This document shows positions 8,633-21,383 of a stretch of 32,000 bases of DNA, one piece after another. The DNA comes from Mycolicibacterium smegmatis (GTDB lineage Bacteria > Actinomycetota > Actinomycetes > Mycobacteriales > Mycobacteriaceae): the NCBI RefSeq assembly GCF_001457595.1, contig NZ_LN831039.1:5220001-5252000 (forward strand). The letters run 5' to 3'. The stretch's first letter is position 1, and each line of letters opens with the position of its first letter. The translations under genes were made by a program, and so were the position numbers. A model generated the notes under the pieces. The model did not search any database. It was not told the DNA's origin and saw only the letters and a list, made by a program, of their open reading frames with translations.

Positions 8633-9582
8633 CGACGTTCGGCCAGCGCCCGCAGGAAGAACGTGAGGTTCGCCGGGCGTTCTGCCAGGCGCCGCACGAA
8701 GTACCCGTACCACTCGTAGCCGAACGGTACGTACACCCGGACGTGATTGCCCTCGTCGGCCAGGCGGCGCTGCTCCCCGTCGCGGATGTTGTAGAGCATC
8801 TGGTACTCGAAATCGTCCACCCCGCGGTGGTATTCGCGCGCGAGTGCGGGCACGGCGGCAATGATCTCCGGATCGTGCGACGCTACCATCGGGTAGCCGC
8901 GGCCGGCCATCAGGATCCGCAGGCACGTCAGGTACGAGTCGGTGACCTCGTCGGGGTCGCGGTACGCGACCGACGCGGGCTCGTCATACGCGCCCTTGCA
9001 CAGGCGGATTCGCGCACCCGAGGCCGCGAACTCCGCGCAGTCGGCGCGGGTGCGCTTGAGGTAGGCCTGCAGAACCGTTCCCAGCCAGTCGAACTCGGTG
9101 CGCAGATCCCGCACGATCGACAGCGTCGAGTCCGTGGTGGTGTGGTCCTCGGCGTCGACGGTCACCCAGGCTTCGATGTCACGGGCCTTGGCGCAGATGG
9201 TGTGCGCGTTCTCCAGCGCGATCTTCTCGCCGTCGCGTGGCAGCGCCTGCCCCAGCGCGGAGAGCTTGAGCGACACCTCGAGTGGCCGCACCTTCGCGTC
9301 ACTGTCGCTCTTGAGGCCCTCGAGCAACGCGAGGTACGCGGCCACGGTGTTGTCGGCGTCCTCCTTGCTGGTGGTGTCCTCGCCCAGATAGTCGATGGTC
9401 ACCAGCCGGCCCGAAGCACGCAGCGCCGCAGTGGCATCCAGTGCCTCGGGCACCGTCTCGCCCGCGACGAATCGGTCCACCACGCGGCGCGTGACCGGGA
9501 GTCGTTCGGCGGTGGCACGGAGGCGCTGCGAACGGGACGCGGCCAGGATGGCGGGTCGGGCGACCCGATCGAAGATGCCCAT
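8629..9582 (-). CDS. pruB: Proline dehydrogenase
   Basis: 317 aa of the monofunctional PutA-type proline dehydrogenase family (LVTIDYLGEDT..., RLCKGAY). It lies 1 nt downstream of the P5C dehydrogenase gene. Synteny with Rv1188. Confidence 0.9.
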   Translation of the reverse strand: MGIFDRVARPAILAASRSQRLRATAERLPVTRRVVDRFVAGETVPEALDATAALRASGRLVTIDYLGEDTTSKEDADNTVAAYLALLEGLKSDSDAKVRPLEVSLKLSALGQALPRDGEKIALENAHTICAKARDIEAWVTVDAEDHTTTDSTLSIVRDLRTEFDWLGTVLQAYLKRTRADCAEFAASGARIRLCKGAYDEPASVAYRDPDEVTDSYLTCLRILMAGRGYPMVASHDPEIIAAVPALAREYHRGVDDFEYQMLYNIRDGEQRRLADEGNHVRVYVPFGYEWYGYFVRRLAERPANLTFFLRALAERR

Positions 9583-9583
9583 G

Positions 9584-11212
<1,629 letters not shown>

Positions 11213-13995: not shown

Positions 13996-14319
13996 TCAGT
14001 CCTCACCCTGAGGCGGAAGATCCTTGATGGCCTGCGGATCGTTGTCCGTCTGGCCCACCTTGGAGGCCCCGCCCGGCGAGCCGAGTTCGGCGAAGAAGTC
14101 GGCGTTGGCCTGGGCGTAGCTGCTCCACTGGTCAGGCACATCATCTTCGTAGTAGATGGCCTCGACGGGGCAGACCGGCTCACAGGCGCCACAGTCCACG
14201 CATTCGTCGGGGTGGATGTACAGCATGCGTGCGCCCTCGTAGATGCAATCGACAGGGCATTCCTCGATGCATGCCTTGTCCTTGACGTCGACGCAGGGTT
14301 CGGCAATGACGTACGTCAC
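13996..14319 (-). CDS. fdxC: 7Fe ferredoxin (3Fe-4S plus 4Fe-4S)
   Basis: 107 aa with a GTG start preceded by AGGAGAG. The Cys clusters are CVDVKDKACIEECP and CVDCGACEPVCP. Synteny with Rv1177. Confidence 0.88.
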   Translation of the reverse strand: MTYVIAEPCVDVKDKACIEECPVDCIYEGARMLYIHPDECVDCGACEPVCPVEAIYYEDDVPDQWSSYAQANADFFAELGSPGGASKVGQTDNDPQAIKDLPPQGED

Positions 14320-14540: not shown

Positions 14541-15671
14541 TCATCCGAGCAGGGCCTTGCCGAACAATTCGTTGCCCACAGCCGCGTTGAAGGCGGCGTG
14601 CCGCGCCCCGATGGCGATGTCACCGGCCATGCGCCGCAGGGGGCTTGCATCGAAAAGCCCACTCGATCCGTGAACATCGACCAGCGTGTCGACCGCAGCA
14701 CGGATCTCTCGGACCGCGTGGCTGCTCTGGGCTTGCGTTCGGGCCTGGGCGAGCCCGTCCGGGAACGAGCCGGCGTCGGCATGCCGGATCACGAATTCCG
14801 TCACGGACCGTGCGTGCAGCTGCGCGGTCTGCAATCCCAGCGCGGCGTCGGCGATCTGGAGCTGAACACCCACCGACTCGCCCTGGGTGCGGTTGCCCGG
14901 GGTGTGGGCGATCTTCTTGTGGGCAGCGGCCTCGACGACGAAGTTCAGCGCAGCGGTACCCACGCCGAGCAGCGCGCCGAGCAGCACGGCTCCTCCGACC
15001 GCCTGGAACGGCAGACGGTAGAGCGGATCGAGCCCGGACACCGCCTCGTCGCGGAGCGCGTCCAGCCGGATGAACCGGTGGGTCGGAACGAAGACGTCGT
15101 CGACGACCACGGTGTTGCTACCGGTGCCCCGCAACCCTGAGGTGTGCCACGTATCAGCGATGTGAACCTCGGCCATGGGCATGACGGCGAACGCCGGCGC
15201 CGACGGTGATCCGTCCTCGTCGGTCGGCGTCACCACAACCGCGGCCCACGAGGCATGGCGTGATCCCGAGGCGTAGGACCACCGTCCGCTGACCACGAGG
15301 CCTCCGGCTGCGGGCCGGGCCGTACCGCTTCCCGAGCCCCCGCCGGCGATCCGGGCGTCAGGATCGGCTCCGAAAACTTCGTCCTGCAGTTCGGGCGATC
15401 CGTGCGCCATGAGCCACGACGACCCGGCGGCGACGCCGACCAACCACGCCGCCGACCCGTCGGCCTCGCCCAGGACTGCGGCCACCTCCTGCACCGTGCC
15501 AAGGTCCGCCTCCAGTCCGCCGAACCGCCGGGGCGTGAACATCCGGAACATCCCGGCGTCCTGCAGCGCCTCGATCACCTCGTCGGCGGCGCGCCGGTGG
15601 ACATCACCGAACTCGGCGAACTCACGCAGTACCGGATGCAGGCCGTATGCAGCTTCGATGATGTCGGTCAA
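14541..15671 (-). CDS. Acyl-CoA dehydrogenase-fold flavoprotein (possibly a flavin-dependent monooxygenase type)
   Basis: 376 aa. SGRWSYASG and WHTSGLRGTGSNTVVVDDVFVP are characteristic of the ACAD-like subfamily lacking the classical catalytic Glu context. Confidence 0.75.
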   Translation of the reverse strand: MTDIIEAAYGLHPVLREFAEFGDVHRRAADEVIEALQDAGMFRMFTPRRFGGLEADLGTVQEVAAVLGEADGSAAWLVGVAAGSSWLMAHGSPELQDEVFGADPDARIAGGGSGSGTARPAAGGLVVSGRWSYASGSRHASWAAVVVTPTDEDGSPSAPAFAVMPMAEVHIADTWHTSGLRGTGSNTVVVDDVFVPTHRFIRLDALRDEAVSGLDPLYRLPFQAVGGAVLLGALLGVGTAALNFVVEAAAHKKIAHTPGNRTQGESVGVQLQIADAALGLQTAQLHARSVTEFVIRHADAGSFPDGLAQARTQAQSSHAVREIRAAVDTLVDVHGSSGLFDASPLRRMAGDIAIGARHAAFNAAVGNELFGKALLG

Positions 15672-15701: not shown

Positions 15702-17804
<2,103 letters not shown>

Positions 17805-17814
17805 TCGGTGCCTT

Positions 17815-17881
17815 CTTTGCACCGCGAGCACTTTGCACCGCGAGCACTTTGCACCGCGAGCACTTTGCACCGCGAGCGTGC
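17815..17881 (+). repeat. Tandem array of 4 x 16 bp (CTTTGCACCGCGAGCA) immediately after the fadH stop
   Basis: The core GCACCGCGAGC starts at 17819, 17835, 17851 and 17867, each separated by ACTTT. The last copy extends to GCACCGCGAGCGTGC. Confidence 0.9.
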
Positions 17882-17933
17882 ATGCCTGCCGCCCAACACG
17901 CCGCCGAACAGCAGCATTGCGCGCACGCTCGCC
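17867..17933. terminator. Roughly 65-nt stem-loop element (copy L) between convergent fadH and yceI; probable bidirectional terminator
   Basis: GCGAGCGTGC (17872-17881) pairs with GCACGCTCGC (17923-17932) across a 41-nt spacer. The inner arms ATGCCTGC and GCAGCAT extend the stem imperfectly. Confidence 0.5.
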
Positions 17934-17938
17934 GGGGC

Positions 17939-18487
17939 TCACGCCTGCTTGAGCGCCTCGATGTTCAGGGTGATGGTGATGTTCTCACCGACCACGGCGC
18001 CGCCGGTTTCCAGCGGCATGTCGATGTCGATGCCGAATTCCTTGCGGTTGAGCACGACGGAGGCCTCGAACCCGGCGACCGCGCCGTGGCCCATGCCCGG
18101 GTTGACGCCGTCGAACACGAGATTCAGGCTGACCGGCTTGGTGATGCCCTTGAGGGTGAAGTCGCCGTCGACCACGTAGCCGTCGCCCTTCTGCGTGACA
18201 CCGGTGGAGACGAATGTGGCGACCGGGAACTTCTCGACGTCGAAGTAGTCGGCCGACTTGAGGTGCTCGTCGCGCTGCTCGTTGCCCGTGTGGATCGAGT
18301 CGACCGCGATCTCGGCGCTCACTGACGGAGTGCCGTCCTCGGCCACGGTGATCTCACCGCTGAACTTCTCGAACGTTCCACGCACCTTGCTGACCACCAG
18401 GTGGCGGACCGAGAAGCTGATGGACGAGTGCAACGGGTCGATGGCCCAGGTGCCGGTGGTCAGGTCGGTGGCTACCGCAACGGTCAT
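17939..18487 (-). CDS. YceI-family (polyisoprenoid-binding-like) protein
   Basis: 182 aa from ATG 18487, preceded by AAGGAGAA. WAIDPLHSSISFSVRHLVVSKVRGTF..F.G and HTGNEQRDEHLKSADYFDVEKFP are YceI signatures. The track start at 18571 is an extension. Confidence 0.85.
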   Translation of the reverse strand: MTVAVATDLTTGTWAIDPLHSSISFSVRHLVVSKVRGTFEKFSGEITVAEDGTPSVSAEIAVDSIHTGNEQRDEHLKSADYFDVEKFPVATFVSTGVTQKGDGYVVDGDFTLKGITKPVSLNLVFDGVNPGMGHGAVAGFEASVVLNRKEFGIDIDMPLETGGAVVGENITITLNIEALKQA

Positions 18488-18615
18488 GACTTTCTCCTTG
18501 CCAGTTCGGGGCCGGCCTTTCCGGCACCCTTGCACCATCCAAACGGACCGCAGTCCGATTTGATTCCCCAAAAGGGTGTCAGTTGGCTGGGAGTTTCTGG
18601 TGCACGCTCACAGCC

Positions 18616-18683
18616 CGCGAGCGTGCGCGGGCTGCTGCTATTTCACGGCGTTTTGTACAGCAGCCACGCACGCTCGCGGTGCC
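18616..18683. repeat. Roughly 65-nt stem-loop element (copy R), an inverted copy of 17867-17933; probable fbiC terminator or yceI 5' region element
   Basis: CCGCGAGCGTGC (18616-18627) pairs with GCACGCTCGCGG (18669-18680), again with a 41-nt spacer. The inner stem is GGCTGCTG / CAGCAGCC. The 15-mer at 18669-18683 is the exact reverse complement of 17867-17881. Confidence 0.8.
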
Positions 18684-18719
18684 GGGTGCGCTCGCGGTGC
18701 CGGGTCCGCTCGCGGTGCA
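18669..18719 (-). repeat. Tandem array of 3 x 18 bp (core GCTCGCGGTGC on the + strand, which is GCACCGCGAGC on the - strand) downstream of the fbiC stop
   Basis: Cores start at 18673, 18691 and 18709, separated by CGGGTGC and CGGGTCC. A degenerate fourth copy, CCTCGCGGTGA, is at 18735-18745. Confidence 0.85.
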
Positions 18720-18758
18720 GAGGTGACCCCCGACCTCGCGGTGAAGGGCCAGAGACCT

Positions 18759-21383
18759 CTACGCGGCCAGGGGCGCGTAGGTGGTGGTGCGCTGGCGGGC
18801 GGGACGGCCGATGCCCTCGGCGATCGCGACCAGCTCTTCGACGGTCTTGGCCGAACCGTTCTCGGAGCCGGCCATGCGGGAGATGGTCTCCTCCATGAGC
18901 GTGCCGCCGAGGTCGTTGGCGCCGCCACGCAGCATGACCTGCGTGCGCTCGATGCCGAGCTTGACCCAGCTGGTCTGGATGTGGTCGATCCGGCCGTGCA
19001 GCATGATCCGGGCCAGGGCGTGGACGGCACGGTTGTCGCGGTGCGTCGGGCCGGGGCGGGAGCCGCCGGCCAGGTACAGCGGCGACGACTGGTGCACGAA
19101 CGGCAGCGGCACGAACTCGGTGAACCCGCCGGTGCGGTCCTGGATGGACTTGATGACGTTGAGGTGTCCGACCCAGTGACGTGGCTGGTCGACGTGGCCG
19201 TACATCATGGTCGAGCTGGACCGCAGGCCGACCTCGTGCGCGGTGGTGATCACCTCGATCCACATCGAGGTGGGCAGCTTGCCCTTGGTGAGCACCCAGC
19301 GGACCTCGTCGTCGAGGATCTCGGCGGCCGTGCCGGGGATGGTGTCCAGCCCGGCCTCGCGCAGCACGGTCAGCCATTCACGGATCGACATGCCGCTGCG
19401 GGTCACGCCGTTGGCGATCTCCATCGGCGAGAACGCGTGCACATGCATCGACGGCACACGCTTCTTGACCGCACGCACCAGATCGGCGTATCCGGTCACG
19501 GGCAGTTCAGGGTCGATGCCGCCCTGCATACACACCTCGGTGGCACCTGCGACGTGCGCCTCCCAGGCACGGTCGGCGACCTCGTCGACCGAGAGCGAGT
19601 ACGCGTCGGCGTCGCCCTTGCGCTGCGCGAACGCGCAGAACCGGCAGCCGGTGTAGCAGATGTTGGTGAAGTTGATGTTGCGGTTGACGACGAACGTGAC
19701 GTCGTCACCGACGGCATCGCGGCGCAGTGAATCAGCCAGTGCGGTAACGGCTTCCAGCGCAGGGCCGTCGGCGGTTGCCAGCGCCAGGTACTCGTCGTCG
19801 CTGCATCCGCCCGGGTTGCGTTCGGCCGATCGCAGTGCCGACAGCACATCGGTGTCGATGCGCTCGGGGGCACGTGCGGCGAGTTCGGAGACCTTCTCGC
19901 GGATCGACTCCCAATCACCGAACGCGCTGTCGAGATCGCTGCGGGTGTCGGTCAACCGGCCCTCGGCGTCGATCGCGGTGTGCAGATCGGTGCGGCCCAG
20001 GGATTCGGAGGCCTCGTCGGGCTCCTGCCACGGCAGGCCCGACGGGTTGACGTCGAGCGCGTAACCGGTGTCGGGGTCGGCCAGCGCATCGACGTGCGCG
20101 CGCACTCGCGGATCGATCCACGCCGCGCCGGCCTGTACGTACTGCGGCTGGGCGGTCAGACGCTGCACCAGGTCGTAGCCGGCCTCGGCGGTGACGTCGG
20201 CCAGCTCATCCAGTGCGGGCCAAGGCCTTTCGGGGTTCACATGGTCCGGCGTCAGCGGCGACACCCCACCCCAGTCGTCGACGCCTGCGCCGATGAGCGC
20301 CAGACATTCGTCGCGCGACACCAGGTTCGGCGGCGCCTGGATGCGCATCTTCGGCCCCAGCACCAGCCGCGTCACCGCGACGGTCGCGAGGAAGTCGTCG
20401 ATGTCGGCATCGGGTGTCGACGCCATCGCCGTGCGGTCCTTGGCGCGGAAATTCTGCACGATCACTTCCTGGACGTGCCCGAACTCCTTGTGCGAACGCC
20501 GGATCGCGTGCATGGTCTCGGCACGCTCGGCCAGCGTCTCACCGATGCCCACCAGCAGTCCCGTGGTGAACGGGATGGACAGCCGTCCCGCGTCGTCGAG
20601 CGTGCGCAGGCGCACCGCGGGATCCTTGTCCGGGCTGCCGTAGTGCGCTTCGCCTTTGGTCTCGAACAGGCGCCGCGACGTGGTCTCCAGCATCATGCCC
20701 ATCGACGGCGCGACCGGCTTGAGCCGCGACAGCTCCGACCAGCTCATGACGCCGGGATTGAGATGCGGCAGCAGGCCGGTCTCTTCGAGCACGCGGATCG
20801 CCATGGCCCGGACGTAGTCCAGCGTGGAGTCGTAACCACGCTCGTCCAGCCACTGGCGGGCTTCCTCCCACCGGTCCTCGGGGCGGTCGCCGAGCGTGAA
20901 AAGGGCCTCTTTGCAACCCAGTTCAGCTCCTTGACGGGCGACGTCCAGGATCTCGTCAGGCTCCATGTACATGCCCATGCCCTGCGCGCGCAGCTTGCCG
21001 GGCACGGTCACGAACGTGCAGTAGTGGCACGTGTCGCGGCACAGATGTGTCACCGGGATGAACACCTTGCGCGAGTAGCTCACCGGCAGCCTGCCGTTCG
21101 GACCGCGCCGCCCCGCCGTGGTCAACCCGGCGTCGCGCACCCGGGCCGCGCTGGCACACAGGTCGGCGAGATCGTCGCCGCGTGCCGTCATCGCGATGGC
21201 GGCTTCATCCACGTTCAGGGCGACACCGTCGCGGGCTCGCCGCAATACACGTCGCAGAGCTGCAGGACTCGGCGTTACGGCGGGCGGAGGGACCAGTGGG
21301 ACACCCAGATCGGCGCCGTGCTCGGAGTTCAAAGCCACTCCCGAATAACTCCACGAGAGTCGAGATTCATCCACGCGTCTCAC
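18759..21383 (-). CDS. fbiC: FO synthase (7,8-didemethyl-8-hydroxy-5-deazariboflavin synthase, fused CofG/CofH)
   Basis: 874 aa, collinear with M. tuberculosis FbiC as I remember it. It has two radical-SAM CxxxCxxC motifs ([10 protein letters not shown] and [10 protein letters not shown]). The exact start is uncertain; an alternative GTG lies 15 codons downstream. Confidence 0.95.

Follow-up and report, generated by a model that had tools for sequence, protein, structure and literature searches.

A stretch of 32 kb from the chromosome of Mycolicibacterium smegmatis (hereafter the window, within which copies, arrays and hairpins were located by position) raises the question of why a single gene, coding for a YceI-like protein of 183 aa, is bracketed by two repeats in inverted orientation, each composed of a short tandem array and a hairpin. 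A first-pass annotation of the window had proposed three readings of this arrangement, namely a terminator-like family akin to the repetitive extragenic palindromic (REP) sequences, the terminal inverted repeats of a non-autonomous cassette carrying yceI, or a pairing of the 5′ and 3′ ends of the yceI mRNA. The first of these turned out to be essentially right. It is likely that each of the two repeats is, independently of the other, a member of a scattered hairpin family, very probably the one described in mycobacteria as TRIT, and that the tandem arrays attached to them are a local matter.

Two composite repeats between fadH and fbiC

The left element is found in the 3′ flank of a fadH-like 2,4-dienoyl-CoA reductase gene (15702–17804, plus strand; domains Oxidored_FMN and Pyr_redox_2, all gene domains having been assigned with Pfam), whose stop codon ends at 17804. 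It opens with a tandem array at 17815–17877 on the plus strand, in which Tandem Repeats Finder (TRF) counted 3.9 copies of the 16-bp unit CTTTGCACCGCGAGCA (score 126, 100% matches). The last unit of this array continues into a hairpin of 61 nt (17872–17932, canonical orientation on the plus strand), the arms of which, GCGAGCGTGC at 17872–17881 and GCACGCTCGC at 17923–17932, are separated by 41 nt. The 3′ arm ends 6 nt short of the stop codon of the yceI-like gene, which is read from the other strand (17939–18490, minus strand; Pfam YceI, E = 1.5e-49) and occupies the space between the two hairpins.

The right element is found in the 3′ flank of fbiC, the gene of FO synthase, CofGH (18759–21383, minus strand; Radical_SAM and CofH_C), whose homologues, among the best 120, are named bifunctional FO biosynthesis protein CofGH, with a top identity of 91%. 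In its array, on the minus strand at 18671–18748, an 18-bp unit that reads GCACCGCGAGC plus 7 nt on that strand is repeated 2.7 times at 18671–18718 (TRF score 89), with a degenerate fourth unit at 18735–18748. The hairpin is again 61 nt long (18617–18677, canonical orientation on the minus strand), with arms that extend to 12–16 nt and a spacer of 41 nt, and its minus-strand RNA folds with a z-score of -4.1.

The 11-mer GCACCGCGAGC that forms the core of both arrays occurs exactly seven times in the window and every occurrence lies within the two arrays, at 17819, 17835, 17851 and 17867 on the left (all exact) and, on the minus strand, at 18672, 18690 and 18708 on the right. Together the elements form a long inverted repeat in which 17855–17935 pairs with 18614–18694 over 81 nt with 77% complementarity. 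The composition given by the first-pass annotation, with four 16-bp units on the left, three 18-bp units and a degenerate one on the right and 41-nt spacers in both, was confirmed, as was the order of gene stop, array and hairpin in each copy. Its coordinates hold for the left copy; those of the right copy were all one base too high, the complement of the 15-mer shared by the two copies lying at 18668–18682 and not at 18669–18683. The match of 28 of 41 spacer positions (68%) between the two copies was reproduced, and the claim that these are not chance palindromes also stands, given that two instances of the arm-gap-arm pattern were counted in the window and none in 100 shuffles of it.

A covariance model built from 72 copies of the hairpin likewise found exactly two copies in the 32-kb window. 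The left one (17860–17938) scores 59.4 bits on the plus strand and 26.7 bits on the opposite strand, and the right one (18611–18689) scores 62.1 bits on the minus strand and 35.4 bits on the plus strand.

Range, sequence and structure of the hairpin family

One genome per bacterial species was scanned with the pattern GCGAGCGTGC, 30–55 nt, GCACGCTCGC, which was found at 120 loci or more (cited here by L numbers where they need to be told apart), showing that the element is not unique to the fadH–fbiC locus. Among the 125 pattern matches listed, 100 are 59–62 nt long, and these are nearly all from Mycobacterium, Mycolicibacterium, Mycolicibacter or metagenome assemblies of Actinomycetota; the listed matches in other phyla have scattered lengths and unrelated interiors. 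Slow-growing species with canonical copies include, among the matches listed, M. celatum, M. kyorinense, M. interjectum and M. simulans. The covariance model placed 104 copies at 55 bits or above in 95 loci, and it brought in about a dozen further copies with imperfect arms, which were beyond the reach of the pattern scan. The hairpin is a repeat family dispersed throughout the Mycobacteriaceae at the 3′ ends of genes.

Each family member consists of a leader of ~10 nt that is poor in G and rich in pyrimidines, an outer stem (C)GCGAGCGTGCG / CGCACGCTCGC(G), and a variable interior containing the motif CGACACGCCG. With a hairpin of ~62 nt, the whole element measures ~72 nt. The mycobacterial consensus of the hairpin reads GCGAGCGTGCGTGTCTGC..CGACACGCCG....GCA..TTGCGCACGCTCGC. 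In the alignments (72 copies, and 104 copies in the alignment to the model) the arms are invariant, the loop motif is conserved in at least 90% of copies and 85% of stem cells are paired. A model of the inner stem fits poorly, with many unpaired cells and a varying register, and covariation exceeds that of shuffles only modestly. Leader positions -11 to -4 are rich in C and T and contain 6–16% G (6–8% at -8 to -6 and at -4), while C at -1 and G at +1 lengthen the stem, which carries two conserved G-U wobble pairs on the canonical strand.

The consensus includes the motif CGACACGCCG on one strand, and the element is therefore asymmetric although its arms are palindromic. Both properties are visible in the covariance model scores, with reverse-strand matches of 26–51 bits alongside nearly every copy, as expected of a palindrome, and the canonical strand outscoring the reverse strand by 25–35 bits. 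The interiors share a mean pairwise identity of 67% across the family, copies within one genome being slightly more similar to each other than copies from different genomes (70% vs. 67%, p = 0.008).

Outside mycobacterial chromosomes the family is scarce. No match to the consensus element was obtained by blastn among plasmids and phages, and a scan of 2.9 million viral contigs for the exact arms gave one true copy and two chance matches. This sole true copy (L244, 11999–12058; IMG/VR, GC 0.60) is near the end of a 17.6-kb contig, which may there represent host DNA flanking a prophage. A canonical copy was also noted on a high-GC contig of a metagenome-assembled genome labelled Bifidobacterium breve (L021, 3159–3219), which is probably mis-binned mycobacterial DNA. 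A paralogous ferredoxin locus of M. basiliense contains no family copy in 20 kb.

Placement at gene ends

Gene ends around the copies were called with a filter on third-codon-position GC, as plain stop distances of open reading frames (ORFs) carry too much noise at high GC. The end of a same-strand gene was found within 300 nt of 75 of the 112 copies, and in 52 (52/112, or 52 of these 75) the stop codon precedes the 5′ arm by 8–25 nt, with a mode at 10–14 nt. A distance below 8 nt was recorded for only two of the 75. When gene ends within 60 nt are considered, 46 copies have a same-strand end only, 18 a convergent end only and 23 both.

By orientation and order, the left copy of the window is assigned to fadH and the right one to fbiC, and it is because these two genes converge that the copies are mutually inverted. 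The left hairpin begins 67 nt from the fadH stop codon and the right one 81 nt from that of fbiC because the arrays intervene. Convergent pairs of copies 100–200 bp apart, one for each of two converging genes, are common in the family (L045, L069, L101, L104, L119, L028, L064 and L107), and the inverted pair of the window follows this pattern, with a gene separating its two members. A striking local pattern thus has an ordinary explanation, that of two gene-end hairpins following converging genes.

Independence of the two copies in related genomes

The first-pass annotation had suspected the slot between fadH and fbiC of being variable, and gene content does differ among the relatives compared. 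The two hairpin copies vary there as well, and they do so separately. Of the two copies, locus L089 has just that of fbiC, which sits 12 nt past the stop codon and lacks an array; its fadH and yceI stop codons are 7 nt apart. Loci L066 and L122 possess only the fadH copy, at a stop-to-arm distance of 13 nt in L122. In L121 (Mycobacterium sp. 3519A) yceI is in the slot with no hairpin copy, and in L224 the fbiC copy is present with no yceI nearby. The gene is thus found in the same slot in L089, L066, L122 and L121 with one flanking copy or none; yceI is a bystander between two elements and not their cargo.

The two copies of the window are ordinary, independent members of the family and not a recently duplicated pair, because their interior identity of 68% equals the family mean of 67% and because their presence varies separately in relatives. 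Even copies at the same fadH 3′ end in different relatives have identical arms together with strongly differing interiors and flank lengths.

Tandem arrays at the hairpin junction

Each unit of the arrays is made up of leader sequence followed by the first bases of the 5′ arm (the first 6 nt in the left array), and the shared core GCACCGCGAGC can be read as GCACC + GCGAGC. Arrays spanning the junction of leader and hairpin were also found elsewhere in the family, at L073 (22 nt, 2.8 copies), L078 (2.1 copies), L070, L064 (both junctions) and L033 (3′ junction). Tandem repeats with a TRF score of at least 50 adjoin 12 of 112 elements as against 14 of 486 element-free gene ends taken from these loci (odds ratio 4.0, p = 0.001); weak tandem repeats are not enriched at elements relative to the control gene ends.

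Unit number differs between close relatives at orthologous sites, which is what defines a minisatellite. A metagenome scan for two adjacent core 11-mers gave three relevant loci among 120 listed (L206, L224 and L172), the rest being mostly high-GC coding repeats. Contig L206, which is 94.7% identical to 16429–18101 of the window, has three units, one of them degenerate, against four in the window, and its hairpin differs by one base. The fbiC copy has one unit in L089, two of 19 nt in L224 and three to four of 18 nt here; at another orthologous site the counts are 1 in L032, 2.1 in L078 and 2.8 in L073; and the fadH copies of L122 and L066 are without an array. The arrays therefore behave like slippage minisatellites whose length differs between close relatives. 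Replication slippage at a junction where the hairpin stalls replication would be the simplest cause.

That element junctions seed variable tandem arrays is a new point, if a modest one. The elements can give rise to short minisatellites that differ between near-identical strains, and array lengths could serve as strain markers for environmental mycobacteria as well as natural spacing variants with which to probe the role of the hairpin. A related array was seen at L134 (metagenome contig WNFC01584448.1, 1550–1660), where seven tandem 15-nt units GCACCGCGAGCGGCA directly follow a stop codon and are followed in turn by a different, terminator-like hairpin; the core 11-mer is the same and the family hairpin is not present.

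Comparison with published families

The family is absent from Rfam 15, a scan of 17000–19500 at E values up to 10 giving noise only (mir-666 at 18.5 bits and HCV_SL669), and a text search of the literature with the arm sequences matched only unrelated primers. Two published families come closer. TRIT, the 'Tuberculosis Rho-independent terminator', is presented in the parts of the RNIE paper devoted to it as a palindromic hairpin conserved in both sequence and structure, with 147 copies in M. tuberculosis and a narrow placement at stop codons; its members were proposed to be terminators, with the suggestion of an extra binding factor (Gardner et al., 2011; PMC3152330). The range given there is Mycobacterium only, including M. 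smegmatis, M. gilvum and M. vanbaalenii (PMC3152330). The family described here is similar in its conserved sequence and structure, in scoring on both strands, in its position at stop codons and in its occurrence in both fast- and slow-growing mycobacteria, and its density of about one copy per 30–60 kb compares well with 147 copies in a genome of 4.4 Mb. On these matching descriptions the two families are very probably the same. The comparison is one of descriptions, and leader-plus-arm tandem arrays do not feature in what the TRIT passages of that paper describe (PMC3152330).

The family is probably also identical to Myt-1, a family of structured stem-loops for which the relevant passages give a length of 72 nt and 75 copies in M. 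tuberculosis (Cozzuto et al., 2008; PMC2267715). Set beside it by length and description, Myt-1 corresponds to the 10-nt leader plus the 62-nt hairpin of the present element. The family would thus have been known since 2008–2011, with its function unsettled, in a group of hosts that is poor in classical terminators.

The REP sequences and bacterial interspersed mosaic elements (BIME) of Escherichia coli are likewise short, palindromic, dispersed repeats of 3′ untranslated or intergenic DNA that form stable RNA hairpins. REPs stabilise the upstream mRNA against 3′ exonucleases, and those within ~15 nt of a stop codon reportedly affect translation termination, a result attributed to Liang, Rudd and Deutscher in 2015. 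The resemblance does not extend to size or to sequence. REPs are 20–40 nt long with a GTAG or CGTC tag and are linked to REP-associated tyrosine transposases (RAYTs; PMC3733652), whereas the family described here measures ~60–72 nt and has neither tag, its element ends reading (C)GCGAGCGTGCG. The REP-like families of M. tuberculosis are listed in the same source as being without GTAG or CGTC end tags (PMC3733652).

The arrays, for their part, resemble the minisatellites of M. tuberculosis known as mycobacterial interspersed repetitive unit-variable number tandem repeats (MIRU-VNTR) in being intergenic tandem repeats whose unit number varies between close relatives. MIRU-VNTR units differ in being 40–100 bp long and in not deriving from a hairpin edge; the units here, of 16–22 bp, are built from the leader and proximal arm of the hairpin itself.

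Proposed function and alternative explanations

We infer that the element works at the level of RNA, as a hairpin at the 3′ end of the upstream gene's transcript. It would be transcribed as the 3′ untranslated end of that gene, and its hairpin, of about -35 kcal/mol, would fold just outside the footprint of the terminating ribosome, which the lower limit of ~8 nt between stop codon and hairpin may reflect. There it could define or protect the mRNA 3′ end, whether as a barrier to 3′-to-5′ exonucleases, as a pause site or as part of a factor-assisted stop. It is not a classical terminator, because it has no U-tract. The lower limit of ~8 nt, the G-poor leader and the one-strand loop motif CGACACGCCG offer handles for experiments.

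A number of points weigh against this reading or against equating the family with TRIT. Folding energy does not differ significantly between the strands, at -35.3 kcal/mol for the canonical and -35.0 kcal/mol for the reverse strand (p = 0.19), and so does not single out the sense RNA as the form under selection; shuffling the variable interior costs only ~2 kcal/mol. The conservation of the arms is partly an artefact of selection, since copies were sampled by their perfect 10-nt arms. Both hairpins of the window are outside the usual spacing, and hence, should spacing be important, these two copies may function badly. In vitro, a U-tract is required by the RNA polymerase of mycobacteria (PMC3993855), and in Term-seq data of M. 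tuberculosis each class of predicted terminators, TRIT included, overlaps only 2–4% of all mapped ends, a figure that is a share of the mapped ends and not of the TRITs. Finally, TRIT hits were placed around -8, 'within the coding sequence', whereas the arms here start at +8 to +25, and the two sets of positions can be reconciled only by supposing ~20 nt of 5′ flank within the TRIT model.

A first alternative is that the family is a selfish mobile element, similar to REPs or to miniature inverted-repeat transposable elements (MITEs), whose folded single strand is recognised by a transposase and which inserts just after stop codons, the arrays then being scars of insertion or of stalled replication and any effect on the host incidental. 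Presence of copies is indeed patchy at the same gene ends among genomes with flanking genes that are 80–85% identical, and the differing interiors and flanks between identical arms at the fadH 3′ end are what independent insertions into a hot spot would give. The conserved inverted terminal arms, the frequency of convergent pairs within 100–200 bp and the slightly greater similarity of copies within a genome point the same way. Against this, comparison of filled with empty sites revealed no target-site duplication, either at single elements or around the repeat-yceI-repeat unit of the fadH–fbiC interval, where the first-pass annotation had advised looking for one, and no associated transposase turned up, though no search was aimed at one. 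The excess similarity within genomes is small and gives no sign of recent bursts, the family is nearly absent from plasmids, phages and viral contigs, and the tight spacing to stop codons and conserved leader could equally mean selection for function. MITEs and composite cassettes share with the present elements their inverted terminal arms and, in the window, an inverted pair around one gene; they differ in that here no target-site duplication was seen, the would-be cargo does not co-occur with the repeats and the copies are oriented to the outer genes. Taken together, we regard a mobile element as an unlikely explanation of the family.

An extension of this idea would have the element mobile now or recently, landing ~10–14 nt after stop codons, with its junctions acting as hot spots of duplication and the arrays tuning the 3′ end of the upstream gene by shifting the hairpin (here from ~13 nt to 67 and 81 nt). 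If true, leader-plus-arm arrays would be a previously undescribed class of hypervariable loci, but the proposal is to be viewed with considerable doubt.

Similar doubt attaches to the reading of the hairpins as a special mycobacterial kind of genuine factor-independent terminator, in which case the left hairpin, situated between two convergent stop codons, would end both fadH and yceI. Hairpins right after stop codons, GC-rich and stable at about -35 kcal/mol on either strand, would suit such a role, which is also the one proposed in the TRIT passages of PMC3152330. An intrinsic terminator, however, has a U-tract of 7–9 nt, and the 10 nt after the 3′ arm contain a mean of 1.2 T (0.96 on the reverse strand), leaving no U-tract on either side; a simple terminator scan returned small sub-hairpins only. 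The in vitro requirement for a U-tract reported in PMC3993855 and the few mapped transcript ends overlapped by TRIT predictions also speak against it. The sequence conservation moreover goes beyond the need of a simple hairpin, and an extra factor had already been put forward by the TRIT authors (PMC3152330).

Pairing between the 5′ and 3′ ends of the yceI mRNA through the two arrays, by which stability or translation would be controlled, is very improbable. If both arrays were on one RNA, the cofold would reach -214 kcal/mol vs. -160 kcal/mol for the parts folded separately. This would require a transcript start upstream of 18722, that is, read-through from fbiC, and a conserved region upstream of yceI (18500–18570, minus strand) is found between the right hairpin and the start codon. 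Since no relative compared has both arrays, what is seen here is an accident of one lineage, not a conserved design.

Least credible of all is the cassette proposed by the first-pass annotation, in which the repeats would be the terminal inverted repeats of a non-autonomous unit carrying yceI: one gene is exactly bracketed by inverted repeats of at least 81 nt and the slot does vary between genomes, but orientation and leader tie each copy to its outer gene, the similarity of the two copies is no greater than that of family members picked at random, their array units differ in length (16 vs. 18 bp), and yceI and both repeats are neither jointly present nor jointly absent in relatives (one copy in L089, L066 and L122, none in L121, and an fbiC copy without yceI in L224); on these grounds the cassette was rejected.

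The yceI upstream region and other genes of the slot

The conserved region upstream of yceI, which in the direction of that gene is downstream of the right hairpin, is probably its own promoter or operator. A block of ~100 nt before the gene is conserved in L122 and L121 despite different upstream neighbours, and its motif is also present in L089 and L066. A palindrome of the form AAACGGAC-N4-GTCCG was found ~60–70 nt upstream of the yceI start in every relative (window 18540–18560, with CGGAC-N4-GTCCG at 18544–18557; L122 9805–9830; L121 ~9745–9770) and looks like an operator for a dedicated regulator. In L121 yceI itself (9136–9696) is inverted relative to fbiC and fadH, unlike in the window, L089, L066 and L122. 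This inversion cannot be attributed to recombination between the repeats, because the slot of L121 has no hairpin copy.

The fadH–fbiC slot is a hot spot of gene turnover (L089, L066, L121, L122 and L224). Depending on the genome, it contains a DUF2231 membrane protein, a DUF1353 protein, a small secreted protein or a peptidase-like gene of ~400 aa, as well as a truncated fragment of a SnoaL-like cyclase adjoining the hairpin (L066, 4320–4600) and AtuA-like genes (L224). On the other side of fadH, the window has an acyl-CoA-dehydrogenase-like ORF of 376 aa (14541–15671, minus strand) between fadH and the ferredoxin gene fdxC (13996–14319), and in L121 and L122 a PadR regulator is found in its place.

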